Source: Minisyncoccota bacterium
Lineage (GTDB): Bacteria > Patescibacteriota > Minisyncoccia > Phycocordibacterales > Phycocordibacteraceae
Assembly: GCA_018062765.1 (NCBI GenBank)
Contig: JAGORR010000001.1
Coordinates: 356,930 to 420,929 of the forward strand
DNA: 64,000 nucleotides
Direction of reading: 5' to 3'
Of the stretch, positions 1,559-64,000 are shown piece by piece. The position numbers and the translations under genes were made by a program. A model generated the notes under the pieces. It saw only the letters and a program-made list of their open reading frames with translations, was not told where the DNA came from and ran no database searches. Each line of letters opens with the position of its first letter. Positions within the stretch are counted from its first letter, which is position 1.

Positions 1559-1879
1559 ATGAAGGAATACCTGGACTCACTTAGAAAGAAGCCGAAGGCG
1601 GTGCGCGAGCGCATCGCGATAGGCGCGTCGCTCGGCACTTCCGGCGTCATCGCCTTGGGCTGGCTTATGGTCATGATTTTCGTAACACCCTATGGGGGTG
1701 CTCCCGCTCCGTCCGAGGAGTTCAATGCATCTCTTTCTGAAACGCGCTCTTCTTTTACGGACGTGCTTGCTGGCGCGGGCGCTGCAGGCGCGACGACGAC
1801 GCGCGCAAGCGGCGTCGAGATCGTCGACACGACGCCGAATAAGCCCGCGGACGCGACGCCGTCCGCTATCGCGTTCTAG
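1559..1879 (+). CDS. Small membrane protein, hypothetical
   Basis: 106-aa ORF with one hydrophobic helix (GVIALGWLMVMIFV); starts 3 nt after the upstream gene and lies directly upstream of gyrA. Confidence 0.4.
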   Translation: MKEYLDSLRKKPKAVRERIAIGASLGTSGVIALGWLMVMIFVTPYGGAPAPSEEFNASLSETRSSFTDVLAGAGAAGATTTRASGVEIVDTTPNKPADATPSAIAF

Positions 1880-1888
1880 ATCCTGACT

Positions 1889-4360
1889 ATGGCAAAAGCT
1901 AAGGAGCCTGAAGCAGGAGGGGAAGCCGCGCCGGTACAGCGCGTCATACAGCAGTCGATTACGGGCGAGATGCGCACGTCGTATCTCGACTACGCGATGT
2001 CCGTCATTACCTCGCGCGCCCTGCCTGATGTGCGTGATGGCCTCAAGCCGGTGCATCGCCGCATCCTCTTTACGATGCGCGAAGCAGGCCTCACGCCGTC
2101 CGCAAAGTTCCGTAAGTCAGCGACGGTGGTCGGAGACGTGCTCGGTAAGTATCACCCTCATGGCGACGTCGCCGTCTACGACTCCATGGCTAAGATGGCG
2201 CAGGATTTCTCATACCGGTATCCGCTTGTCATGGGTCAGGGAAACTTCGGATCCATCGATGGCGATTCTCCTGCTGCCTACCGTTATACGGAGGCGAAGA
2301 TGTCGCGCCTTTCCGACGAGCTTCTCGCAGACCTCGAGAAGGACACGGTGACCTGGGGCGCCAACTACGACAACACCCGACAGGAACCGAAGGTGCTTCC
2401 GGCGGCGCTCCCGAATCTTCTTTTGAACGGAACGTTGGGCATCGCTGTTGGTATGGCGACCAACATCCCGCCGCATAACCTGAAGGAGGTGGTAGATGCG
2501 ACCGTGCACCTTATCGATGAGCCGGAGGCGACAACCGATGACCTCCTGGGAATCGTGAAGGGTCCTGACTTCCCTTTGGGCGGCATCGCATTCAATCAGG
2601 CAGACATCAAGCACGCGTACGCTAACGGCAAGGGCGGCGTTGTCGTGCGCGGCGAGGCAGAGATTGTCGAGGACAAGAAGGGAAGCCACATCGTGATCAC
2701 TTCTATTCCGTATCGCGTTAACAAGGCAGAACTCATCACGCGCATCGCGGAGTTGGTGCAGGAGAAGAAGCTCGAGGGCGTCCGCGACCTTCGCGATGAG
2801 TCAGCGGCAGACATTCGCGTCGTTGTCGAGCTTAAGGGCACTGCACACCCGCAGGCGGTATTAAACGCTCTCTATAAGCACACGGAATTGGAGTCCACCT
2901 TCCACTACAACATGCTGGCGCTCGTCGACGGTGTGCCGCAGACGCTGTCCTTGAAGGGTATGCTCGAGCACTTCATCGAGCACCGCAGGGAGGTGGTGAA
3001 GCGTCGCACGGAGTACGACCTCCGGAAGGCCGAGGAGCGCGAGCATATCCTCTTGGGACTCTCGAAAGCGCTCGATCATATCGACGAGGTCATCGCCATA
3101 ATCAAGAAATCAGCGGACGTTGCTGCGGCTTCCTTGGCGCTCCAGAAGAAGTTCGCGTTCTCGCAGATACAGGCGGCAGCGATTCTCGAGATGCGCCTTT
3201 CGAAGCTTGCAGGCCTCGAGCGCAAGAAGATTGAGGATGAGCTTGCGGAGGTCCAGGCGCTCATCAAGAAGCTCAAAGAGATTCTCTCCTCCGCGAAGAA
3301 GATTCTCGCGGTGGTGAAGGCCGAGCTCGTCGCTATCGGCGAGAAGTACGGAGATGATCGCCGTACGAAGATCGTGAAGGGCGGAGTGAAGAACATCTCG
3401 GTCGAGGACATGGTTCCCGACGAGGAGAGCGTCTTGGTCATCACCGCAGGCGGCTATGTGAAGCGCACTAACCCATCAGAGTACAAGGCGCAGAAGCGCG
3501 GTGGCGTTGGTGTTATCGATATGTCTACCAAAGAAGAGGATGTGGTGACCCACTTCCTTTCTACTTCGGCGCACTCCGACCTTCTCTTCTTCACGAATCT
3601 CGGCAAGGCGTACCAGACCAAGATGTACGACATCCCAGAAGGAAGGCGCGCAACGAAGGGGAAGTCCATCATGAACTTCCTGCCTTTTGCAGCCGAGGAG
3701 AAGGCGACATCAGTGCTTGCGGTTCCAAAGGGCGCCGAGCGGGATGCCTTGTCTGTGTTCTTCGTGACCGAGCAGGGCGTCGTGAAGAAAGTTGCTGCCA
3801 AGTCATTCGCTGACGTGCGCAAGTCCGGCATCATCGCGATAAACCTCAAGGGCGGAGATAAGCTCGTCTCCGCGCACTTGGCCTCCGAGGGGGATACCAT
3901 TTCCATAGTGACCGCGAAGGGGCAATCGATACGGTTTGCGGCAGACGACGTGCGCGAGATGGGGCGCACGGCGGCGGGTGTGCGCGGCATGTCTGTGAAG
4001 AAGGGAGACTCGGTAGTTTCCGCAGAAGTCATTCCAGCTGCGGACGAGAAGCACGCAGCGCTCCTCGTCGTCATGGCCAAAGGGTATGGCAAACACACAT
4101 CTATCGATGAGTACAAAATTCAGGGACGCGGTGGATCGGGTATTAAGACCGCAGAGGTGACCGGCAAGACTGGTGAGATTATCGGCGCGAAGGTTCTCAC
4201 GGGTGAATTTAAGGAGGATGAAATCGTCGTCATCTCGAAGAAAGGCCAGGTCATCCGCACGAAGGTGGGGGAGATTTCGAGCCTTGGACGCGCGACGCAG
4301 GGGGTACGCATTATGAAGTTGCGAGAGGGAGATGCCATCGCCTCCATGGTGGCGTTGTAA
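1889..4360 (+). CDS. gyrA: DNA gyrase subunit A
   Basis: 823 aa; N-terminal [26 protein letters not shown] active-site region and a C-terminal beta-pinwheel repeat region. Confidence 0.95.
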
Positions 4361-6175: not shown

Positions 6176-6712
6176 ATGTCATTCGCGGACCCGCGAGAGA
6201 ATGTTCTGCAGATAGGCCTTCATGACGGCATGAAGGTGGGAGACTTGGGCGCTGGATCGGGTCACTACGCGCTTGCTGCAGCTGGCGCCGTCGGAGACAC
6301 CGGTCGCGTGTACGCGATCGATGTCCAGGAGGAAGTCGTCATGCATATAAGGGACGCGGCACATCGCGCAGGGCTCAAGAATGTCGAGACGATATGGGGA
6401 GACTTCGAACGCCCTGGCGGCACCAAGCTTAAGGACGGAGTCCTCGATGCTGCCATACTCTCGAATGTCATGTTCCAGGTGGAGCATCATACGAGCGCGA
6501 TCTCGGAGGTGAAGCGCATCGTGCATCCTGGCGGAAAGGTGCTTGTCATCGACTGGGCGGGTTCCTACGGGCACTTGGGGCCTCATCCGGACCAGGTCGT
6601 TCCTGAGTCAGAAGCAGAGCGATTGTTTATACAGGCAGGATTCCACAAGGCGAAGAGTTTTCGCGCAGGTCCCCATCACTACGGTATCCTGTTTACGACA
6701 CCCGCCTCATGA
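6176..6712 (+). CDS. Class I SAM-dependent methyltransferase
   Basis: VGDLGAGSGHYAL SAM-binding motif I; start placed at the MSFADP Met at 6176, because the upstream part of the track ORF overlaps the palindrome and promoter region. Confidence 0.65.
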   Translation: MSFADPRENVLQIGLHDGMKVGDLGAGSGHYALAAAGAVGDTGRVYAIDVQEEVVMHIRDAAHRAGLKNVETIWGDFERPGGTKLKDGVLDAAILSNVMFQVEHHTSAISEVKRIVHPGGKVLVIDWAGSYGHLGPHPDQVVPESEAERLFIQAGFHKAKSFRAGPHHYGILFTTPAS

Positions 6713-8011: not shown

Positions 8012-8464
8012 ATGAAACGCACAGCCATCTTCGTTTCTGCACTCTTGCTGACTCTTTCAGCGATGTCCGCCCCAGTGTACGCGCAGGACATGAATCTTGG
8101 GGGTGGAGCGACCGGTAACGCTAGTACCAATCTCGGCGGAGGTCCGTCAGGTAACGGTACCAATCTGGGGGGAGGCTCTCAGGGGTGCGGATTCCTTTTG
8201 AATCCACTCGACAACGAGTGCAATAGCGACATGACGCTCAATGATCTCCTTAGCAAAATATTGAACGTCATCGTCCAGATAGGTGTAGTCGTGCTCACTA
8301 TGATGCTCGTCTACGTTGGTTTTCTCTTTGTCACTGCCCAAGGGAACCCGGAAAATCTTTCCAAGGCCCGGAGCGCACTCATATGGACGATAATCGGCGG
8401 CTTCCTCGTGCTTGGCGCGAGCGTCATTGCAGAGGCGGTTAAGTCGACGGTTGAAGCGCTCTGA
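8012..8464 (+). CDS. TrbC/VirB2-type pilin-like protein (paralog 1 of 5)
   Basis: Signal peptide, Gly/Asn-rich low-complexity segment, then two TM helices separated by NPENLSKARSAL; the same motif occurs in the 22412 and 23928 proteins. Confidence 0.6.
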   Translation: MKRTAIFVSALLLTLSAMSAPVYAQDMNLGGGATGNASTNLGGGPSGNGTNLGGGSQGCGFLLNPLDNECNSDMTLNDLLSKILNVIVQIGVVVLTMMLVYVGFLFVTAQGNPENLSKARSALIWTIIGGFLVLGASVIAEAVKSTVEAL

Positions 8465-8465
8465 T

Positions 8466-8738
8466 ATGGACGGCGAGGAGGTTATCGTCGTGGGACAGAA
8501 AGGCACCTTCGCCTCGATGGTGTACAAGTTCACCGGCTTCATTGACTCCAGTATTATCCCGTTATTGTTTGCGGCCGCATTCCTCGCGATGCTGGTGGGC
8601 ATATTTCGCTATTTCATGATTCCGGGCGAGGAGAATTTGCAGAAGGGTCGCCAGTTTTTGCTGTGGGGCGGTATCGCTTTTGTGTTCATGTTCCTTATCT
8701 GGGGGCTCGTAAACCTACTCCTCGATTCGGTATTCTAG
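8466..8738 (+). CDS. TrbC/VirB2-type pilin-like protein (paralog 2)
   Basis: 90 aa; two TM helices flanking EENLQKGRQFLLWGGIAFVFMFLIWGLVNLL; ATG lies 1 nt after the paralog-1 stop. Confidence 0.55.
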   Translation: MDGEEVIVVGQKGTFASMVYKFTGFIDSSIIPLLFAAAFLAMLVGIFRYFMIPGEENLQKGRQFLLWGGIAFVFMFLIWGLVNLLLDSVF

Positions 8739-8786
8739 CTGTTTATAAGTACACATAGCCTGGCTCAGTACTGATACGCTAAACGT

Positions 8787-9215
8787 ATGAAAAAGACATT
8801 CTCCGCCCTATTGTTTTCACTAGCGCTCATGTTCACACTTACACCGTCCATTGCCTTTGCGCAGGGCCAGCAGCAGCCGCAACCTGATCAGCAGGGCACG
8901 GGTGAGTCACAGCCGAGCGAGCTCGAGCTTCGTATCGGATGGCTTCTCGACTTCGTCGATGGGTACGTCATTCCGCTCATATTCGGACTCGCATTCGTCG
9001 TATTCATCTGGTTCGTGTTCGTGTACTTCATCCTTGGCGGAGCTGAGGAAGAGCAGCGCGCTAAAGGAAAGCAGTTCCTGTTGTGGAGTCTTATTGGGTT
9101 CGTACTCATGCTCTCCTTGTGGGGTATCGTGAACCTGCTTCAGAACACCATAGGATTCGATAATAACTCCAAGCCGTGTCTGCCGGTGTTCGAACAGGAC
9201 AACGAAGACTGCTAA
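8787..9215 (+). CDS. TrbC/VirB2-type pilin-like protein (paralog 3)
   Basis: Signal peptide, Gln/Pro-rich region, two TM helices with EEQRAKGKQFLLWSLIGFVLMLSLWGIVNLL. Confidence 0.6.
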   Translation: MKKTFSALLFSLALMFTLTPSIAFAQGQQQPQPDQQGTGESQPSELELRIGWLLDFVDGYVIPLIFGLAFVVFIWFVFVYFILGGAEEEQRAKGKQFLLWSLIGFVLMLSLWGIVNLLQNTIGFDNNSKPCLPVFEQDNEDC

Positions 9216-9299
9216 TGCGGTTGTCCCCACAGTGCACCCCATACGATTGACTTCGCGCCAAAGCCGCTTACCCTTAGTACATATCCGCTTACCACTGCT

Positions 9300-9689
9300 A
9301 TGAAGAAAATTCTCTTGCTCGTCGCTCTGTTCACCATCCCGGCCATTGCGTTCGCGCAGTTTGGCGAAGGCGGTAATAATCAGGACCTTGGCGATCTCGG
9401 TCAGGAGTTCACTGACATCATCAATAACATCGCGGTTCCGCTTATCTTCGCGCTCGCGTTCGTCATCTTTATTTGGGGAGTATTCAAGTACTTCATTCTT
9501 GGTGGCGGAGACGAGGAGGCTCGCGAGAAAGGTCGCGACCTCATGATTTGGGGACTTCTGGGATTCTTCTTCATGATTTCAGTCTGGGGACTCGTGAATC
9601 TCGTCGTGAACACCATCGACCTGGAGCAAAGCGGAGCACCGGACGAAAATGACTTGCCGGACGCTCCGGGAGTCAGGGACTCGAACTAA
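9300..9689 (+). CDS. TrbC/VirB2-type pilin-like protein (paralog 4)
   Basis: Signal peptide, two TM helices with EEAREKGRDLMIWGLLGFFFMISVWGLVNLV. Confidence 0.6.
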   Translation: MKKILLLVALFTIPAIAFAQFGEGGNNQDLGDLGQEFTDIINNIAVPLIFALAFVIFIWGVFKYFILGGGDEEAREKGRDLMIWGLLGFFFMISVWGLVNLVVNTIDLEQSGAPDENDLPDAPGVRDSN

Positions 9690-10621: not shown

Positions 10622-11860
10622 TCAGATGTTCTTGGTTGCATTATGGCCGACAGCGGCGTCGAGAAGGCTGTTGCCGCTCGACTGCACGATGACCTTTTTT
10701 GCAGTCCCGCGCCGGGCTTGTACCCGGTCGAGAGCCTCGGTCAAGGTCATGATAGACTCCTTTGTTTTTTCAGAAGACTTTTCGGACGCCGCGACGAGCT
10801 TGAGCGCTTGCTCGAGTTCGGCATCGCTGTCCTTATCCTCGGCACGCTTCTCTGCGTCTTCCGCTGCGGCCTTGTTCTGTGCCAGTAGCATCACAGCATC
10901 TGGAGTGAGACGCGCGACGTTGAATCGCGTGATCTTAACACCAAGCTGCCGTACGTCACCGACACCGTTCGCAACCGCAGTGTTGAGGAAGAACTCAATC
11001 TCCTTCTCAACCTCGCGTTGCGCGGCGCGCTGCTCCTTCGCTTCGAGGCCCGCGCCTGCCTCAAGGAAGTAGGCTACGGGGTCGTCGATCGCTTTAAGCG
11101 TTCCGTCCTGAGTCTTCGCCTCGTAGTTCGTGGCAGTGATACCGAGACGTTTGATCTGCGCTTCGTCGACTTTCCCGCTTGCGTCGCGAGGAAGCTCAGC
11201 CATCTTGGTGTTCGCGATCATCGTGATGAGCTGAACGGATAGTGGAAGCTTGAGGAACAGGAACTGCTCCCAGGTATGGAAGAGTGCTGCACCACGCATG
11301 GCCTCCTTCGTCATGCCTTCAACGATGCTTCGGACGCCGTTCATGAGGCCGCTCTTGATCAACTCCTTCATGCGCTGAGGCCCGATCGGTCTTCCGCTGT
11401 CGTCCTTGGCTTCATGGTCTGGCTCGATCGTAAGATCGACCTTCACATCCACGGAACCGCCCGCGGTCTGTTTGCCCTCCTTGTCGGTCGCCTTGCAGGT
11501 GACCGAGAATGGGGCAAATTCGACATCGAGACGGGTTACGTCAATTGGTATCAGGCCGATTTCAAACGGCAGGTAGTCTGCCGTCATGTAGTCGCCTGGT
11601 CCGACGAGGATGTCCTGCGGTTCGCCATAGCAAGTCACCAAGGCGACATGCTGCGGCTTGGCAGAGACGTTCGTTTTCCAGCCCATCTTCACCATGAGGA
11701 TTCCGAGAGTGGCAAAGCTGACACCCATGAGGTAGTTCCCGTCGACTCGGTAGGCGAGAAACGCACAGAGCGCGCCGACCGCCATAAGTATGACGGCGAT
11801 GCGCCACAACTTCGAACTGAAGTCAGGACCGACTATGTATTGGCTTACAAGGTTCTTCAT
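10622..11860 (-). CDS. SPFH/band-7 (stomatin/flotillin-like) domain protein
   Basis: 412 aa; N-terminal TM helix, SPFH-like core and a Glu/Ala/Lys-rich coiled-coil C-terminus. Confidence 0.6.
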   Translation of the reverse strand: MKNLVSQYIVGPDFSSKLWRIAVILMAVGALCAFLAYRVDGNYLMGVSFATLGILMVKMGWKTNVSAKPQHVALVTCYGEPQDILVGPGDYMTADYLPFEIGLIPIDVTRLDVEFAPFSVTCKATDKEGKQTAGGSVDVKVDLTIEPDHEAKDDSGRPIGPQRMKELIKSGLMNGVRSIVEGMTKEAMRGAALFHTWEQFLFLKLPLSVQLITMIANTKMAELPRDASGKVDEAQIKRLGITATNYEAKTQDGTLKAIDDPVAYFLEAGAGLEAKEQRAAQREVEKEIEFFLNTAVANGVGDVRQLGVKITRFNVARLTPDAVMLLAQNKAAAEDAEKRAEDKDSDAELEQALKLVAASEKSSEKTKESIMTLTEALDRVQARRGTAKKVIVQSSGNSLLDAAVGHNATKNI

Positions 11861-11898: not shown

Positions 11899-11927
11899 AT
11901 TATACACCACAGCCCACACAATGTCAA
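11899..11927 (-). promoter_or_regulatory. Consensus sigma70-type promoter (TTGACA-17 nt-TATAAT) upstream of the SPFH gene
   Basis: Reverse complement of plus 11922-11927 is TTGACA and of 11899-11904 is TATAAT, with a 17-nt spacer. Confidence 0.5.
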
Positions 11928-11974: not shown

Positions 11975-12100
11975 TGCTGGGGGAGGGCTTGGTCAGGCGC
12001 TCATTCGTCGCCGTCGCTCCTCACTCCGCCTGACCACCCTCGCGTGACAGACTTTGCTAAGTCTGTAGACCGCGCTCGGTTTCAAGTCTCCACCCCATGC
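11975..12100 (-). repeat. tRNA-Leu-associated structured repeat unit (copy u2, minus orientation)
   Basis: 5' end GCATGGGGTGGAGACTTGAAAC (reverse complement of a T-loop-like GTTCAAGTCTCC); hairpin ACAGACTT-AGCA-AAGTCTGT; 3' end CCAAGCCCTCCCCCAGCA mimics the tRNA-Leu 3' end. Confidence 0.6.
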
Positions 12101-12128
12101 CATTGCGGCTGCTTGCGCAGCCTTTATG

Positions 12129-12252
12129 TGCTGGGGAGGGCTTGGCGAAGCGTCTGCCGATCGTCGTCACTCCCGGCTCCGCTCGGCCCTGCTCGCACGA
12201 CACGGCGTGCTCGCCGCGTAGACCGTGCTTGCGTTCAAGTCTCCACCCATGC
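12129..12252 (-). repeat. tRNA-Leu-associated structured repeat unit (copy u1, minus orientation)
   Basis: Same architecture as u2; hairpin CGCGGCG-AGCA-CGCCGTG; 3' end CCAAGCCCTCCCCAGCA. Confidence 0.6.
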
Positions 12253-12282
12253 CTCTGCGCCAGGCTTGTGTCTGGTTACGTG

Positions 12283-12364
12283 TGCTGGGGAGGAGACTTG
12301 AACTCCTAACCCGTGAGGGACATGGTCCTAAGCCATGCGCGTATACCAATTCCGCCACCCCAGC
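12283..12364 (-). tRNA. tRNA-Leu (anticodon TAG), class II with a long variable arm
   Basis: Manual fold: acceptor GCTGGGG/CCCCAGC, D stem GCG/CGC, anticodon stem CATGG/CCATG with loop CTTAGGA, T arm AGGAG-TTCAAGT-CTCCT, discriminator A. Confidence 0.8.
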
Positions 12365-12406: not shown

Positions 12407-12479
12407 GCGCCTATAGCTCAGTTGGTAGAGCAGATCCCTCTTAAGGATAAGGTCCCTGGTTCGAGCCCAGGTAGGCGCA
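12407..12479 (+). tRNA. tRNA-Lys (anticodon CTT)
   Basis: Manual fold: acceptor GCGCCTA/TAGGCGC, D arm GCTC-AGTTGGTA-GAGC, anticodon loop CTCTTAA, T arm CCTGG-TTCGAGC-CCAGG. Confidence 0.85.
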
Positions 12480-12486
12480 CTAACAC

Positions 12487-12517
12487 GAAAAAGTCCTGGT
12501 CTGCACCAGGACTTTTC
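12487..12517 (+). terminator. Intrinsic terminator after tRNA-Lys (AAAAGTCCTGGT-ctgc-ACCAGGACTTTT)
   Basis: Perfect 12-bp stem plus U-tract. Confidence 0.65.
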
Positions 12518-12725
12518 GGTTAGTGCGCGACGGAACCATGTTTTGCGAGCGCGCAAAACCGGTGAGCCAGGGTCGTAGCCTGAAGTGAGTGTCGACGAGC
12601 TTCAGGGCTATGACCACGTGCGAGGCACAGCGATGTTTTGTCTGCAGATAAAACCACGAGCCGGGATAGCGGAATTTCATGAATAATGACTAATGAAATA
12701 TCCGTGACCACAAATTGCAAAACGT

Positions 12726-13625: not shown

Positions 13626-13708
13626 GCCAGGGTGATGGAACGGTAGACATAGGGGACTTAAAATCCCCAGCTGTAACAAGCGTGTGGGTTCGACTCCCAC
13701 CCCTGGTA
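13626..13708 (+). tRNA. tRNA-Leu (anticodon TAA), class II
   Basis: Acceptor GCCAGGG/CCCTGGT (G1-U72), anticodon stem GGGGA/TCCCC with loop CTTAAAA, long variable arm, T arm GTGGG-TTCGACT-CCCAC. Confidence 0.8.
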
Positions 13709-13738
13709 CTCGGTAGGGCGTGATAGGATTCTGCCATC

Positions 13739-13810
13739 GGCCCGATGGTGAAGTGGTAACACGGGGGACTGCAAATCCTCTATGCGCGGGTTCAATTCCC
13801 GCTCGGGCCT
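13739..13810 (+). tRNA. tRNA-Cys (anticodon GCA)
   Basis: Acceptor GGCCCGA/TCGGGCC, anticodon loop CTGCAAA, T arm GCGGG-TTCAATT-CCCGC, discriminator U as is typical of tRNA-Cys. Confidence 0.8.
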
Positions 13811-13872
13811 CAAATTGGACGCGCAGCGTCTAATAGCGGGAATTGAAGGCCGTAGCTATATCGTGCGAGCAC

Positions 13873-13918
13873 GCACGATTGCGAGGCGGGGTCACGAATA
13901 AGGTCTGCTCGACGGAGC
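13873..13918. terminator. Long bidirectional terminator hairpin (GGTCACGAATAAGGTCTGCTC-gacg-GAGCAGACCTTATTCGTGACC)
   Basis: 21-bp perfect inverted repeat between the tRNA pair and the convergent rbfA gene. Confidence 0.6.
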
Positions 13919-13949
13919 AGACCTTATTCGTGACCAGTACCGCTCTGTC

Positions 13950-14303
13950 TTAAATTTGGTTCCCTAACTCATCCATTCGCTGACGGTTCTTCTCCCCAGC
14001 ATCGTGCTCAAACTTTACAGACGGAATGGCGCGCAGACGGGACTTCTGCTTGAGGAAGGTCCGGAATTCATCGCGGTTGCGATTTAAGAAATCTAGCGCG
14101 TAGGGAAGGGCGGTGTCAGGGAACACGGTGACGAACAAGGTGGCGCGGTCACCTCTTGAGGAGAGTACTGCGCGTGTCACCGTTATAAGCGATGTGTTAT
14201 TCGATTCGCGCGCAATAAACTCAGCCGCTAGATGCGCTACCTGCTCCTCGGCGCGCTCGCCGTGATGATTTGCCTTGCCGCCCCCGGTAAATGGAAGGCT
14301 CAT
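13950..14303 (-). CDS. rbfA: Ribosome-binding factor A
   Basis: 117 aa; sits downstream of infB with an ATGA overlap, which is the conserved infB-rbfA synteny; RbfA-like size and sequence character. Confidence 0.6.
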   Translation of the reverse strand: MSLPFTGGGKANHHGERAEEQVAHLAAEFIARESNNTSLITVTRAVLSSRGDRATLFVTVFPDTALPYALDFLNRNRDEFRTFLKQKSRLRAIPSVKFEHDAGEKNRQRMDELGNQI

Positions 14304-22096: not shown

Positions 22097-22198
22097 CCAC
22101 CGATAGCCAGCAGCTGCTGGCTATCGTCTTTATATGGGTGCGGCTCCCAGGTGGTCACAAATACTTCCGCGTCGACACTTGGAAGTTTCGCGACCCCG

Positions 22199-22239
22199 CC
22201 AAAAAGGAAAAACCTGGAGCAGTCCAGGTTTTTCCTTTT
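22199..22239. terminator. Bidirectional terminator AAAAAGGAAAAACCTGG-agcag-TCCAGGTTTTTCCTTTTT
   Basis: 17-bp stem flanked by A/T tracts, immediately 3' of the minus-strand tRNA-Trp. Confidence 0.6.
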
Positions 22240-22313
22240 TGGCGGGCCCAGTAGGAATCGGACCTACGCTAACGGTTTTGGAGACCGTTGTACTACCACT
22301 ATACGATGGACCC
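22240..22313 (-). tRNA. tRNA-Trp (anticodon CCA), CCA end encoded
   Basis: Minus-strand fold: acceptor GGGTCCA/TGGGCCC, anticodon stem ACGGT/ACCGT with loop CTCCAAA, T arm GTAGG-TCCGATT-CCTAC, discriminator G + CCA. Confidence 0.8.
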
Positions 22314-28115: not shown

Positions 28116-28196
28116 GCCGGGGTGGCGAAATGGTAAACGCAGAGGATTCAAAACCCTCCGCCGCAAGGCTTGAGAGTTCAAGTCTCTCCCCCGGCA
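28116..28196 (+). tRNA. tRNA-Leu (anticodon CAA), class II
   Basis: Acceptor GCCGGGG/CCCCGGC, D stem GCG/CGC, anticodon loop TTCAAAA, 13-nt variable arm, T arm GAGAG-TTCAAGT-CTCTC, discriminator A. Confidence 0.8.
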
Positions 28197-28216
28197 CAAA
28201 GCGCGAAGCGCGCATG

Positions 28217-28364
28217 GTCGGGGAGTACCCTGCCTGCGCAGGGTACGTGAGAGACTTGAACGCCGGAGCGATGATTCGTCAGCAGACGAATCCGCGAGGC
28301 AAGGCTATGAAAATTCTCGAGTGACGGCGAGAGAATTATTCCTGGCCAAGCCTTCCCCGGCACA
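28217..28364 (+). repeat. tRNA-Leu-associated structured repeat unit (copy B, plus orientation)
   Basis: 5' GTCGGGG pairs with 3' CCCCGGC-A (acceptor-like); internal GAGAGACTTGAACGCCGGAGCGATG; hairpin GATTCGTC-AGCA-GACGAATC; 3' end CCAAGCCTTCCCCGGCACA. Confidence 0.6.
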
Positions 28365-28385
28365 TGAAGCACGCGCAGCGTGCGA

Positions 28386-28511
28386 AGGGCTCGTGGGTGG
28401 GACTTGAACGCCGGAGCGATGCTTCATCAGCAGATGAAGCCGTGAGCTGGGGTCGCGGAAAATGCCATGTGACGACATGGCATTTATTCGCGACCAAGCC
28501 ACCCCGGCACG
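28386..28511 (+). repeat. tRNA-Leu-associated structured repeat unit (copy C, plus orientation)
   Basis: GGGACTTGAACGCCGGAGCGATG; hairpin GCTTCATC-AGCA-GATGAAGC, which is compensatory relative to copy B; second hairpin ATGCCATGT-gacg-ACATGGCAT; 3' end CCAAGCCACCCCGGCACG. Confidence 0.55.
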
Positions 28512-39372: not shown

Positions 39373-39443
39373 TGGGGGGTCGTCTAATGGTAGGACAGAG
39401 GCCTTTGAAGCCTTTAATTTTGGTTCGACTCCAAGCCCCCCAG
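39373..39443 (+). tRNA. tRNA-Gln (anticodon TTG)
   Basis: Acceptor TGGGGGG/CCCCCCA, anticodon stem GAGGC/GCCTT with loop CTTTGAA, T arm TTTGG-TTCGACT-CCAAG, discriminator G. Confidence 0.8.
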
Positions 39444-39538
39444 CCAACTTGAGCGAGGTTCTTGCGTCCGAGACGCATTGAACTAAGCCAAGACTCCATT
39501 CAGAAAAGGCATACCGGCTGAGAGTCGCATTCAGAACG

Positions 39539-63913: not shown

Positions 63914-63986
63914 GGGCCGTTAGCTCAGTTGGTAGAGCACCTCATTTGCAATGAGGGGGTCGCAGGTTCGAATCCTGTACGGTCCA
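63914..63986 (+). tRNA. tRNA-Ala (anticodon TGC)
   Basis: Acceptor GGGCCGT/ACGGTCC (G3-U70 present), D arm GCTC-AGTTGGTA-GAGC, anticodon loop TTTGCAA, T arm GCAGG-TTCGAAT-CCTGT. Confidence 0.85.
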
Positions 63987-64000
63987 CAATCAGCCAGGCG

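Follow-up and report, generated by a model that had tools for sequence, protein, structure and literature searches.

Very probable structured RNA modules with arms copied from the upstream tRNA in the 3′ trailers of Patescibacteria tRNA genes

We report a family of repeated units that, with little doubt, are structured RNA modules in the 3′ trailers of tRNA genes of CPR/Patescibacteria and have not been described before. Each module consists of a spacer hairpin (S), which is often terminator-like, a 5′ arm (a′), a conserved core, and a 3′ arm (a). The a′ arm is the Watson-Crick reverse complement of positions ~54-75 in the upstream tRNA, spanning the T-loop, the 3′ strands of the T and acceptor stems, the discriminator, and the next 1-2 nt, and a small hairpin (P1.1) often interrupts it. 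The a arm is a direct copy of tRNA positions ~61-75 with a constant CCAAG(C) in front, and the spacer is a palindrome that runs on into both a and a′. The core, ~100 nt and constant in length, is a three-way junction with two helical domains, P2 and P3, and is marked by an invariant GY-GACG-RC hairpin tip (the GACG loop of P3) and by a conserved G·U pair. This design, in which variable arms are rewritten for each neighboring tRNA around a constant core, has no described counterpart; it implies either a new form of control or proofreading of tRNA maturation, where protein regulators are few, or a self-copying element that uses the T-loop as its handle. The family would add a widespread class of structured RNA to a huge and little-understood branch of the bacteria, in 120-330-nt blocks behind tRNA genes that are at present unannotated.

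The window, the 64,000-nt stretch of DNA that we analyzed, contains eight tRNA genes according to ARAGORN and eight units, each closely 3′ of one of five tRNA genes and in the same orientation: two behind tRNA-Leu(TAG), two behind tRNA-Leu(CAA), one behind tRNA-Cys, two degenerate units behind tRNA-Lys, and a remnant behind tRNA-Trp. An initial annotation had described four copies, two ~125-nt units on the minus strand behind tRNA-Leu(TAG) and a recurrence of the family at 28217-28511. Both sequence and ARAGORN place the first pair behind that tRNA gene (12282-12364), the second pair lies behind tRNA-Leu(CAA), and all four copies are real, but as a total for the window the count was too low by the four units at the Cys, Lys, and Trp genes.

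The gene for tRNA-Leu(TAG) (12282-12364, minus strand; called by ARAGORN, by the Rfam tRNA model at 57.6 bits, and from the sequence) lacks an encoded CCA and ends in ..CCCCAGC-A73-C74-A75. It is followed on the same strand by spacer S1 (12253-12281), which includes a small hairpin, has no T-run, and has no terminator or promoter predicted on the sense strand, and then by unit U1 (12128-12252, minus strand), which is delimited by its fold and the consensus structure and matches covariance model R1 at 12136-12244 with 92.7 bits. All parts of U1 lie on the minus strand: a 5′ antisense arm a′ (~12233-12252; GCATGGGTGGAGACTTGAAC), P2 with its AGCA loop (~12191-12232), P3 with a GT-GACG-AC loop (~12144-12188), and a 3′ sense arm (~12128-12143; AAGCCCTCCCCAGCAC). 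Beyond spacer S2 (12101-12127), in which the sequence and the hairpin list show the hairpin GGCTGC-GCAA-GCAGCC, lies U2 (11975-12100, minus strand; fold z = -4.56; model match 11983-12091, 86.4 bits), a tandem copy with the architecture of U1, supported by covariation, in which the stem sequences differ yet still pair. A consensus sigma-70 promoter at 11927-11899 comes directly after U2, ahead of the next gene. As originally noted, both copies start with GCATGGG(G)TGGAGACTTGAA, their 5′ end being the reverse complement of a T-loop, and both end with CCAAGCCCTCCCC(C)AGCA, which mimics the 3′ end of the adjacent tRNA. The 7-8-bp hairpin with an AGCA loop is likewise there, but it had been called perfectly paired and one of the two stems contains a G·U pair. 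The ends are tRNA-like, as had been proposed, but not in a generic sense: in both U1 and U2, one arm repeats the 3′ ~20 nt of tRNA-Leu(TAG) itself in antisense and the other repeats it in sense.

The second pair of units is arranged in the same way on the plus strand. The gene for tRNA-Leu(CAA) (28116-28197; called by ARAGORN, Rfam, and from the sequence) also lacks an encoded CCA, and its 3′ terminus, ..CCCCCGGCAC, is reproduced in both U3 and U4. Spacer S3 (28198-28216), with the mini-hairpin GCGCG-AAG-CGCGC, leads into U3 (28217-28363; fold z = -6.04; model match 28250-28355, 94.4 bits), in which the optional hairpin P1.1 (28226-28245, with a CUGC-type loop) splits the 5′ arm and results in a four-way junction; P2 (28262-28300), P3 (28303-28347), and the 3′ arm (28348-28363) follow. 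Spacer S4 (28364-28392), with the hairpin GCACGC-GCA-GCGTGC, separates U3 from its tandem copy U4 (28393-28510; fold z = -6.46; model match 28398-28503, 85.1 bits); both spacers were identified from the sequence and the hairpin list. Since no sense-strand terminator or promoter was predicted in the window between the two Leu tRNAs and their units, co-transcription is the simplest reading.

The remaining loci show the module in reduced or decayed form. Behind tRNA-Cys (13739-13811, plus strand), a spacer and one unit occupy 13812-13950 on the same strand (model match 13837-13943, 65.5 bits); the sequence of the 5′ arm, AGCGGGAATTGAA, is that of the tRNA-Cys T arm in reverse complement, down to the unusual T-loop TTCAATT, and the arms have no acceptor-like part. 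Behind tRNA-Lys (12407-12480, plus strand), the sequence at 12481-12709 contains a terminator-like hairpin with a T-run and then two degenerate units, which match the model at 12526-12623 (43 bits) and 12624-12709 (27.5 bits). Behind tRNA-Trp (22240-22313, minus strand), in which CCA is encoded, a terminator-like hairpin precedes a remnant (22140-22239, minus strand) with a match at 22153-22244 (22.8 bits, covering model positions 12-100); this remnant retains a 7-nt antisense arm, TGGCGGG, P3 as its sole core domain, and a degenerate sense arm. The 14-mer GGTGGAGACTTGAA occurs five times with at most 2 mismatches, compared to 0.41 occurrences expected by chance, and the spacings inside units are nearly fixed (60 or 63 nt, then 17 nt).

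The arms follow the local tRNA very closely. The neighboring tRNA's 3′ strand recurs unchanged as the 3′ arm, and the 5′ arm complements that tRNA perfectly, even across the tRNA's own G·U pairs (G4·U69 in Asp, G50·U64 in Val) and through local variants of the T-loop (AATTGAA in Cys, ATTTGCA and ACTTGCA in Met, ACTCGAA in Leu-GAG). The stretch of the 5′ arm that matches the T-loop is unpaired within the unit's own fold. The copied block stops at N73-C74(-A75), exactly as the tRNA gene does, and a second terminator-like hairpin often follows; thus, the 3′ end of the unit is set in the processing context of a tRNA.

The predicted folds of the units are very stable (z-scores of -2.0 to -6.5), and the covariation that the initial annotation had seen in them is genuine. 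RNAalifold on the four window copies yielded a three-way junction of 37 pairs; in 22 of these, both sides have changed and pairing is retained. Among 53 distinct homologs, 93.8% of pair cells hold standard pairs (compared to 33-41% when the partners are slid), compensatory double changes occur in 29 of the 31 pairs, and none of 500 shuffles equaled the observed values for pairing and covariation, support that is on a par with that for accepted Rfam families. The conserved G·U pair is G·U in 35 cases, A-U in 10, and G-C in 2, and all pair cells together hold 79 G·U but only 24 A·C; both results point to the tRNA-sense strand as the one that folds. Tandem or paralogous copies in one genome are ~64-67% identical with every helix kept, which indicates long-term selection on the structure; copies within one genome are old, diverged, and structurally intact. 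A mutual information analysis for long-range tertiary pairs yielded no loop-loop contact, only helix extensions and exchanges between A·G and Watson-Crick pairs.

A covariance model search of CPR genomes and metagenomes extended the family beyond the window to 57 units, with at least 10 tRNA identities ahead of them across CPR bacteria. The upstream tRNAs are those for Asp, Val, Leu, His, Cys, Lys, Arg, Met, and Trp, and probably also Ser, so the link to tRNA-Leu first suggested was too narrow. Nearly all units with upstream flank lie behind a co-oriented tRNA (with a gap of 26-80 nt) or behind another tandem unit; at least one exception (L011) has no tRNA within 170 nt and is preceded by a promoter-like sequence and followed by a terminator. 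Each of the 29 high-scoring units stands behind a tRNA that lacks an encoded CCA and is the last of its cluster, and none of 16 CCA-encoding tRNAs has a high-scoring unit, although this association comes from loci fetched for carrying a unit and is therefore subject to ascertainment bias. The gene context is housekeeping synteny (GatA-type amidase, RluA-like, L19, RF2-like, LigA-like, ParB, Rel, and IF-2). All-against-all clustering of ORFs from 38 loci recovered this synteny and no recurrent partner gene beyond the tRNAs, and no recurrent integrase, transposase, or reverse transcriptase was found among the ORFs of the loci and their flanking genes.

ARAGORN calls none of the units as tRNA or tmRNA, and Rfam (gathering score, E<=10) calls only true tRNAs, in agreement with the earlier judgment that they are neither tRNAs nor a known ncRNA; the position of the T-loop is occupied by the ~100-nt core, in contrast to the tRNA cloverleaf. 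At the gathering score, neither the units of the window nor those of 14 related loci matched any curated Rfam 15 family, self-cleaving ribozymes, Y RNA-like families, 5S, SRP, and 6S among them, and at E<=10 the two window loci gave only chance-level matches. Only short ORFs run across the units, and the compensatory stem changes together with the G·U pattern favor RNA over protein coding. The units are not mirror tRNAs, since only positions ~54-75 are copied and the core bears no reverse-complement relation to the tRNA body. An att-site scar at a tRNA gene fits poorly with the 110-150 nt of noncoding sequence between the repeats, which holds no integrase and is flanked by housekeeping genes. 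Integron attC sites carry the boxes R″ (RYYYAAC) and R′ (GTTRRRY) and lie near cassette ORFs and an IntI integrase; compared by eye with this consensus, the units have ends of GACTTGAAC ... CCAAGCC instead, and no cassettes or integrase. The consensus boxes of dif-like sites are missing as well. A retroelement primer-binding site was rejected because the arm matches the gene's N73-C-A rather than N73-CCA, and there is no reverse transcriptase. A phage or plasmid origin was rejected as well: the strict pattern did not occur in viral contigs, and the two arrays of the window had no blastn match in phage or plasmid collections. As terminal repeats of a MITE or REP-like element, the arms are anomalous in that they vary with the neighboring tRNA, and same-genome copies are mostly less than about 70% identical, tandem twins and one chimera excepted. 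A full-text literature search returned no description of the module family.

We tentatively propose that the module acts in cis on tRNA maturation through two mutually exclusive helices, which we call H0 and P1. Sequences for both helices are present together with a conserved core, and the alternative partner is the upstream tRNA. Minimum free energy folds were predicted for tRNA, spacer, and unit together. Of 30 modules, 27 showed pairing of a′ with at least 15 nt of the tRNA's 3′ strand, and 29 no longer formed the acceptor stem. In a control, the median number of the last 22 tRNA nucleotides paired downstream was 19 with a unit, compared to 2 without one. The invaded state is predicted to be favored over the folded tRNA plus folded unit by a median of -16.4 kcal/mol, a nearest-neighbor energy that ignores tRNA tertiary structure and modifications.

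Specifically, the module would be transcribed as part of the tRNA precursor. In H0, the spacer hairpin would set a′ beside the free 3′ tail of the tRNA, and a′ would zip along the tRNA 3′ strand, unfolding the acceptor and T arms. In P1, a′ would pair instead with the module's own sense arm a, which would close the unit as a mimic of an acceptor/T-stem minihelix with the core as its cap. The choice between the helices would be set by timing, that is, by whether RNase Z-type cleavage after N73 occurs before a′ is synthesized, and precursors still unprocessed would meet the module as a checkpoint or a trap. Afterward, the sense arm would neutralize the harmful antisense arm, and the conserved core would bind a putative protein or ligand. 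The large predicted stability advantage of H0 over P1 makes reversible switching under ligand control unlikely and leaves a kinetic race as the only fit. The spacer resembles a strong intrinsic terminator (a GC hairpin with a T-run) in many CPR loci; if this is a working terminator, a′ would seldom be on the same RNA as the tRNA. We are more doubtful of the proposal in its fullest form, a cis-encoded device of CPR bacteria, one per tRNA, that would unzip its own uncut tRNA while the core recruits a putative factor, as a checkpoint or regulator of maturation. If this checkpoint exists, it would be a kind of control undescribed for any organism, and the modules are open to experiments in vitro and in the handful of Saccharibacteria in culture.

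We considered it unlikely, but worth weighing, that the module acts in trans as a stable mimic of a tRNA minihelix. The freed trailer would fold via P1, with the core in place of the T-loop, would be trimmed and perhaps CCA-tailed like a tRNA after RNase Z-type cleavage, and would act on a protein with affinity for the acceptor/T arm of tRNAs (a processing enzyme, synthetase, toxin, or nuclease), as its decoy or its partner. The geometry is consistent with such a mimic, with P1a (7-9 bp) and P1b (~6 bp) fitting the 12-bp acceptor/T stack and the optional P1.1 at the branch point expected for the D and anticodon arms, as are the processing context that the 3′ ends of unit and tRNA share and the orphan unit of L011 with its own promoter-like sequence and terminator. 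However, a mimic has no need for a 5′ arm complementary to a T-loop, a stretch left unpaired in the unit, nor for identity to the neighboring tRNA, from which it would be free to drift through compensatory changes, like P2 and P3. Moreover, the 5′ arm pairs with N73 and C74, so that, unlike in tRNA, there is no free discriminator, and the palindromic spacer continuous with a and a′ is left unexplained.

Modules have been gained and lost at orthologous positions. At the tRNA-Leu(CAA)/parB locus, there are two modules in the window, one in the related locus L102, and none in the related locus L100, where the tRNA differs from that of the window at two positions but is identical in the T arm and 3′ end and lies in the same synteny; the module is thus dispensable for a given tRNA. 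The L102 module lies between the copies of a 36-nt exact direct repeat, made up of the tRNA's last 11 nt and 25 nt of host flank, and has an orthologous P2 but a different P3. Such presence/absence polymorphism with flanking direct repeats is a feature of MITE or REP-like elements, and copies would multiply and vanish by slippage between direct repeats. For the mobile-element reading raised in the initial annotation, the signs are mixed: gain and loss point to it, but the setting, housekeeping synteny without transposase or integrase genes, does not.

It seems rather unlikely to us that the modules are selfish, or at least self-propagating, repeats that colonize tRNA gene 3′ ends and whose conserved structure serves propagation. 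They would spread by template switching or recombination, with the T-loop sequence, near-universal among tRNAs, providing the homology on either side: a nascent strand would snap back at the spacer hairpin and copy the tRNA 3′ end into a′, and synthesis would switch to the core of another module, return at CAAG, and recopy a and the flank. As a variant, a folded single-stranded circle would integrate in the fashion of CTX phage; the order a-S-a′-core-a is expected if a dumbbell-shaped circle with a single a/a′ stem integrates. The L102 and L100 polymorphism, the bracketing repeat, and the combination of an orthologous P2 with a different P3 in L102 all fit self-propagation, as do tandem arrays (with identical twin units in L079), cores common to different tRNA contexts (85% identity between L017, at Asp, and L033, at Met; a chimeric unit, L033:1559), and arm boundaries that always fall at the T-loop, the sole stretch common to all tRNAs. 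Against it, neither a recurrent mobility gene nor a match in viral contigs, phages, or plasmids was found, as described above, and the tRNA-Asp module keeps the same housekeeping synteny in ~9-10 loci. Copies in one genome are diverged, with core identities of at most about 70% (tandem twins and a chimeric pair of L033, at 94%, being the exceptions), show no sign of recent bursts, and keep all their helices by compensatory change. Neutral inserts between direct repeats 150 nt apart should vanish fast in streamlined genomes, and the host flank inside the repeat argues for local duplication over import.

Finally, it is improbable that the modules are REP-like 3′-end elements, structured plugs behind the last tRNA of a transcription unit that protect against exonucleases, back up termination, or insulate the next gene from the tRNA promoter, with the tRNA-derived arms as historical baggage: they do sit behind the cluster's last tRNA, directly ahead of the next gene's promoter in the case of U2, they fold very stably, and the empty sites of relatives bear an ordinary hairpin, but a plug needs neither the invariant GACG loop, conserved G·U pair, and fixed lengths nor arms matched to the tRNA down to its T-loop variant, no T-run was found behind the units in the window, and the antisense arm would harm the tRNA to be protected.

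Several known systems share features with the modules. The MALAT1 mascRNA and menRNA are tRNA-like elements in longer transcripts that are cut by RNase P and RNase Z. The modules similarly place an acceptor/T-stem-like helix, possibly a bait for tRNA-end processing enzymes, in a precursor, and they too adjoin another RNA whose end the cut defines. In contrast, the units have no T-loop or cloverleaf, their 5′ strand pairs past the discriminator, and their arms copy the neighboring tRNA; the Rfam mascRNA-menRNA model scored weakly for a real tRNA only and not for units. The bacterial Y RNA YrlA has a canonical T arm and D arm and adjoins the rsr (Ro60) gene, whereas the units have neither arm, are multicopy, and lie beside tRNAs. 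YrlA resembles the units as a bacterial ncRNA that in part mimics tRNA, through a tRNA-like domain, and is closed by a long terminal stem (PMC4201824). The units had no match to Y-RNA-like Rfam families, even at E<=10.

In E. coli tyrT, tRNA-Tyr is followed by 178-bp tandem repeats, each with the last ~19 nt of the tRNA gene. These are likewise direct repeats of a tRNA 3′ end in tandem downstream of the gene, probably expanded by unequal recombination, but tyrT is a single locus in one species, is not known to have an antisense copy or a conserved covarying core, and has a repeat that is partly protein-coding (tpr), whereas the units carry an antisense copy and a covarying core at many loci. 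As in the terminator/antiterminator/anti-antiterminator logic of riboswitches and T-box leaders, the modules have a conserved junction domain, a P1 strand that is also used by a competing helix, and tandem arrangements; the differences are that P1 competes with a partner located upstream, the product tRNA itself, and that H0 is predicted to be far more stable than P1, which makes a kinetic mechanism likelier than a reversible one. The primer-binding site of retroviruses and LTR retroelements (18 nt) is similar in that the modules hold a ~20-nt exact complement of one tRNA's 3′ end, but they match the gene's N73-C-A rather than the mature CCA end, pair this arm with a sense copy, and have no reverse transcriptase nearby. 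REP/BIME and MITE elements, attC sites, and CTX attP are, like the modules, small, structured, multicopy, and extragenic, with structure conserved more than sequence, tandem arrays, and gain and loss, and the CTX-phage attP is also a folded hairpin that mimics its target. In contrast, the module core is conserved over deeply divergent CPR lineages with arms that vary by neighbor, same-genome copies are not near-identical, and R″/R′ consensus, integrase, and RAYT are all missing.

Group I introns at position 35/36 have been described in Patescibacteria tRNAs (PMC13011429). That paper does not concern these units, but an intron of this type probably explains the tRNA-Asp that appeared to be missing from locus L027.

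Two tandem units lie behind tRNA-Leu(TAG) (12282-12364, minus strand), at 12252-12128 (U1) and 12100-11975 (U2) on the same strand, as the initial annotation had described. Both begin with GCATGGG(G)TGGAGACTTGAA, end with CCAAGCCCTCCCC(C)AGCA and contain the hairpin with an AGCA loop. The proposed recurrence of the family was borne out by a second array on the plus strand, U3 (28217-28363) and U4 (28393-28510), downstream of tRNA-Leu(CAA) (28116-28197). ARAGORN and Rfam (gathering score; E ≤ 10) recognized true tRNAs only, in agreement with the view that the units are neither tRNAs nor a known ncRNA. The members of each array are about 64-67% identical (U1 to U2; U3 to U4), and RNAalifold places all four units in one common three-way junction, with 22 of 37 pairs kept despite changes on both sides; thus, the covariation claimed from the stems holds across the units. 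The tRNA-sense strand of all four folds well (z = -2.0 to -6.5). Internal spacing is nearly fixed, since GYGACGRC follows GACTTGAA at 60 or 63 nt and precedes CCAAGCC by exactly 17 nt, and a 14-mer common to the units occurs five times at ≤2 mismatches (0.41 expected). A covariance model run with filters off found eight units in the window: these four, a good one after tRNA-Cys (13837-13943; 65.5 bits), two degenerate units after tRNA-Lys, and a remnant of only the P3 helix after tRNA-Trp.

We examined the family more widely by scanning a single genome from each species with a strict pattern; this returned 32 stretches, 14 of them true units and the remainder chance hits. The true hits were all in MAGs (Saccharibacteria, Nomurabacteria, Adlerbacteria, Paceibacterota, or another small MAG). 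The strict pattern matched 66 stretches in metagenomes and none in viral contigs. A covariance model (R1) built from 18 units yielded 57 units at E ≤ 1e-5 from 38 sources. Among the 53 distinct unit sequences, 93.8% of pair cells hold standard pairs, compared to 33-41% when the partners are slid; changes on both sides occur at 29 of 31 pairs, and none of 500 shuffles reached the observed covariation values. P3 contains a conserved G.U pair (35 G.U, 10 A-U, 2 G-C), and G.U cells outnumber A.C cells overall (79 vs 24). Thus, the tRNA-sense strand is the one that folds, most simply as RNA. In P3, the hairpin tip (G-Y-GACG-R-C) and the basal GG...CC pairs are nearly invariant, an invariance partly imposed by the search pattern.

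The family probably includes subtypes missed by both pattern and model. In one contig (L021), a divergent variant at ~6523-6626 (minus strand; 18.7 bits) with the end CAAGTCCGGTCGGCCGCGCCA and a different P3 tip immediately precedes a canonical unit. In three others, tRNA-Leu(GAG) and tRNA-Ser(TGA) genes with no model hit at E ≤ 1e-5 (L022 2862-2947, L074 5453-5540, L067 1116-1201) have their last 13 nt directly copied, with 0-1 mismatch, 150-310 nt downstream, and in L074 a weak 23.9-bit hit immediately follows tRNA-Ser; these trailing copies are likely divergent modules below detection.

Nearly every unit with a known upstream flank lies 26-80 nt behind a co-oriented tRNA or behind a preceding tandem unit, with exceptions in L011 and L021. 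The upstream tRNAs are Asp, Val, Leu (TAG, CAA, GAG, CAG), His, Cys, Lys, Arg, Met, Trp and, probably, Ser. After a constant CCAAG(C), the 3' sense arm (a) copies the 3' strands of the upstream tRNA's T-stem and acceptor stem, the discriminator, and the next 1-2 bases (compare tRNA-Asp, ...GTCCCGTCTCTCGCGCA, to its unit, ...CCAAGCCCGTCTCTCGCGCA). The same tRNA stretch, prolonged through the T-loop, is represented in the 5' antisense arm (a') as its reverse complement. Watson-Crick complementarity is perfect even opposite the tRNA's own G.U pairs (GCGAGAG vs CTCTCGC, where the tRNA 5' strand is GCGGGAG), and thus a' was not copied from the 5' half of the tRNA. Moreover, a' tracks local T-loop variants, though the unit's own fold leaves this part unpaired: TTCAATT of tRNA-Cys is matched by AATTGAA, TGCAAAT and TGCAAGT of two tRNA-Met genes by ATTTGCA and ACTTGCA, and TTCGAGT of tRNA-Leu(GAG) by ACTCGAA; L001 is an exception. 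A small hairpin, P1.1, often interrupts a' exactly at the acceptor/T-stem boundary. Its recurrent loops, CUGC on a 9-bp stem or a GCGAAGC/GCGGAGC mini-hairpin (window 28226-28245; L079, L089, L082, L016, L027), suggest a further conserved recognition element.

At L027 ~1055-1095, upstream of a unit at 1152-1262, ARAGORN called no tRNA; here the 3' part of a tRNA-Asp starts exactly after anticodon position 35 (...aacgtg followed by CACGGCGGAGGTTGCGGGTTCAAGTCCCGTCTCTCGCGCC). A group I intron occurs at position 35/36 of Patescibacteria tRNA-Asp (PMC13011429), and the fit to this position suggests that intron-containing tRNAs carry modules too.

From this layout of arms, the closed unit resembles its tRNA's acceptor/T-stem minihelix, the conserved core standing in for the T-loop. 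One reading, which we consider rather unlikely, is that the unit is a stable minihelix mimic acting in trans. Folding predictions bear on a second, competing helix. The spacer between tRNA and unit (S) is a hairpin whose arms continue nearly uninterrupted into the tRNA 3' strand and a' in most loci outside the window (more weakly within it), such that tRNA positions ~54-75, S and a' form one long hairpin, H0. In predicted minimum-energy folds of tRNA, spacer and unit, the acceptor stem is gone in 29 of 30 modules (spacer plus unit), and in 27 of the 30, a' is base-paired to 15 nt or more of the tRNA 3' strand. The predicted H0 state is favored over folded tRNA plus folded unit by a median of -16.4 kcal/mol (range 0 to -26; 30 modules). 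Among tRNAs without a unit, examined as a control, the final 22 nt pair with downstream sequence over a median of 2 nt, compared to 19 nt for tRNAs with a unit.

Predictions for the window place neither a terminator nor a promoter on the sense strand between the Leu tRNAs and the units behind them; thus, co-transcription with the tRNA is the simplest reading there. A perfect sigma-70 consensus promoter (11899-11927, minus strand; TTGACA, 17 nt, TATAAT) directly follows U2 and precedes a 412-aa ORF (10622-11860) with no Pfam match.

We tentatively prefer a cis checkpoint or trap, a possible mechanism in which the module would be transcribed together with its tRNA. Tethered by S beside the free N73-C-A tail, a' would invade the tRNA unless the trailer had already been cut off; a would later cap a' to give the closed, minihelix-like unit, and the conserved core would bind a putative factor. 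Three observations count against this mechanism: the spacers of many loci are terminator-like (GC stem, GNRA loop, flanking A-run and T-run), L100 does without the module, and L011 has an orphan unit.

We then compared the orthologous tRNA-Leu(CAA) locus beside parB in the window and four relatives (L100-L103). Two modules occur in the window and one in L102 (ParB 77% identical), where an exact 36-nt direct repeat, comprising the last 11 nt of the tRNA and 25 nt of host flank, brackets the module. No module is present in L100 (81% identical), whose tRNA is in the same orientation and nearly identical (two differences, identical 3' half); thus, the module is not essential for a given tRNA. In L101 and L103 the tRNA is inverted relative to the window, L100 and L102, has a different T arm (GTGGGTTCAAGTCCCAC), and is followed by an ordinary hairpin. 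The L102 unit shares ~85% identity with U3 in P2, with P3 of another sequence type. Cores are also shared by units behind different tRNAs: those of L017, downstream of tRNA-Asp, and L033, downstream of tRNA-Met, have 85% identity. Within L033, a comparison of units at 1559-1660 (minus strand), 2227-2332 and 3251-3352 revealed the first to be a chimera, with spacer, 5' arm and P1.1 identical to the tRNA-Asp module ~570 nt away, whose own 3' arm is truncated, and a core 94% identical to that of a tRNA-Met module in the same contig. L079 has two identical tandem modules. Thus, modules are duplicated, deleted and recombined via their repeats.

These dynamics bring up a repeat that propagates itself with the T-loop as its homology handle, or a folded circle with integration as in CTX phage, a reading that we think a little less likely still than the trans-acting mimic; no recurrent integrase or transposase was found among module neighbors. 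Old paralogues keep every helix through compensatory change, and direct repeats 150 nt apart should quickly purge neutral inserts from streamlined genomes, so persistence points to selection or active re-creation. A REP-like 3' plug or insulator is improbable.

The modules work a little like tRNA-like processing mimics (e.g., mascRNA) and the alternative-helix logic of riboswitches and T-boxes, and the antisense arm recalls a retroviral primer-binding site. The E. coli tyrT repeats, which repeat tRNA 3' ends, are also a little similar. The modules do not appear to belong to any of these families, most of the defining features tested being absent; for the riboswitch type, a conserved core and mutually exclusive helices are predicted, but the alternative partner is the upstream tRNA, and H0 would be much more stable than the helix between a and a'. 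A full-text literature search found no description of such modules. The element class is real, strongly supported and apparently undescribed, the units very probably constitute a new family of tRNA-trailer RNA modules, and their neighbor-specific design is unprecedented.

Possession of a unit is associated with the absence of an encoded CCA. All 29 high-scoring units follow a tRNA without encoded CCA and without a further tRNA within 150 nt, while no high-scoring unit follows any of 16 CCA-encoding tRNAs, an association subject to ascertainment bias since loci were fetched through a unit. Among the tRNA genes of the window (12282-12364, 12407-12480, 13626-13709, 13739-13811, 22240-22313, 28116-28197, 39373-39446 and 63914-63987), only tRNA-Trp and tRNA-Gln encode CCA, each with a remnant (Trp) or nothing downstream; the other six end N73-C, then A or T, and intact units occur only behind CCA-less tRNAs.

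Recurrent module neighbors are housekeeping genes, among them a GatA-type amidase, an RluA-like pseudouridine synthase and L19 (Pfam-confirmed), and RF2-like, LigA-like and GatC-like ORFs (assigned by eye from the sequences); those in the window are IF-2, Rel, ParB and aminotransferases. Homologues of this ParB carry the names Paceibacterota, Parcubacteria, Minisyncoccia or Patescibacteria, which assigns the window to a CPR genome. The tRNA-Asp module has the same synteny in ~9-10 loci. Elsewhere in the window, three consecutive small ORFs (8012-9689, plus strand) adjoin a solute-binding protein gene, and each has a match to PF18895, a pilin family of type IV secretion systems.
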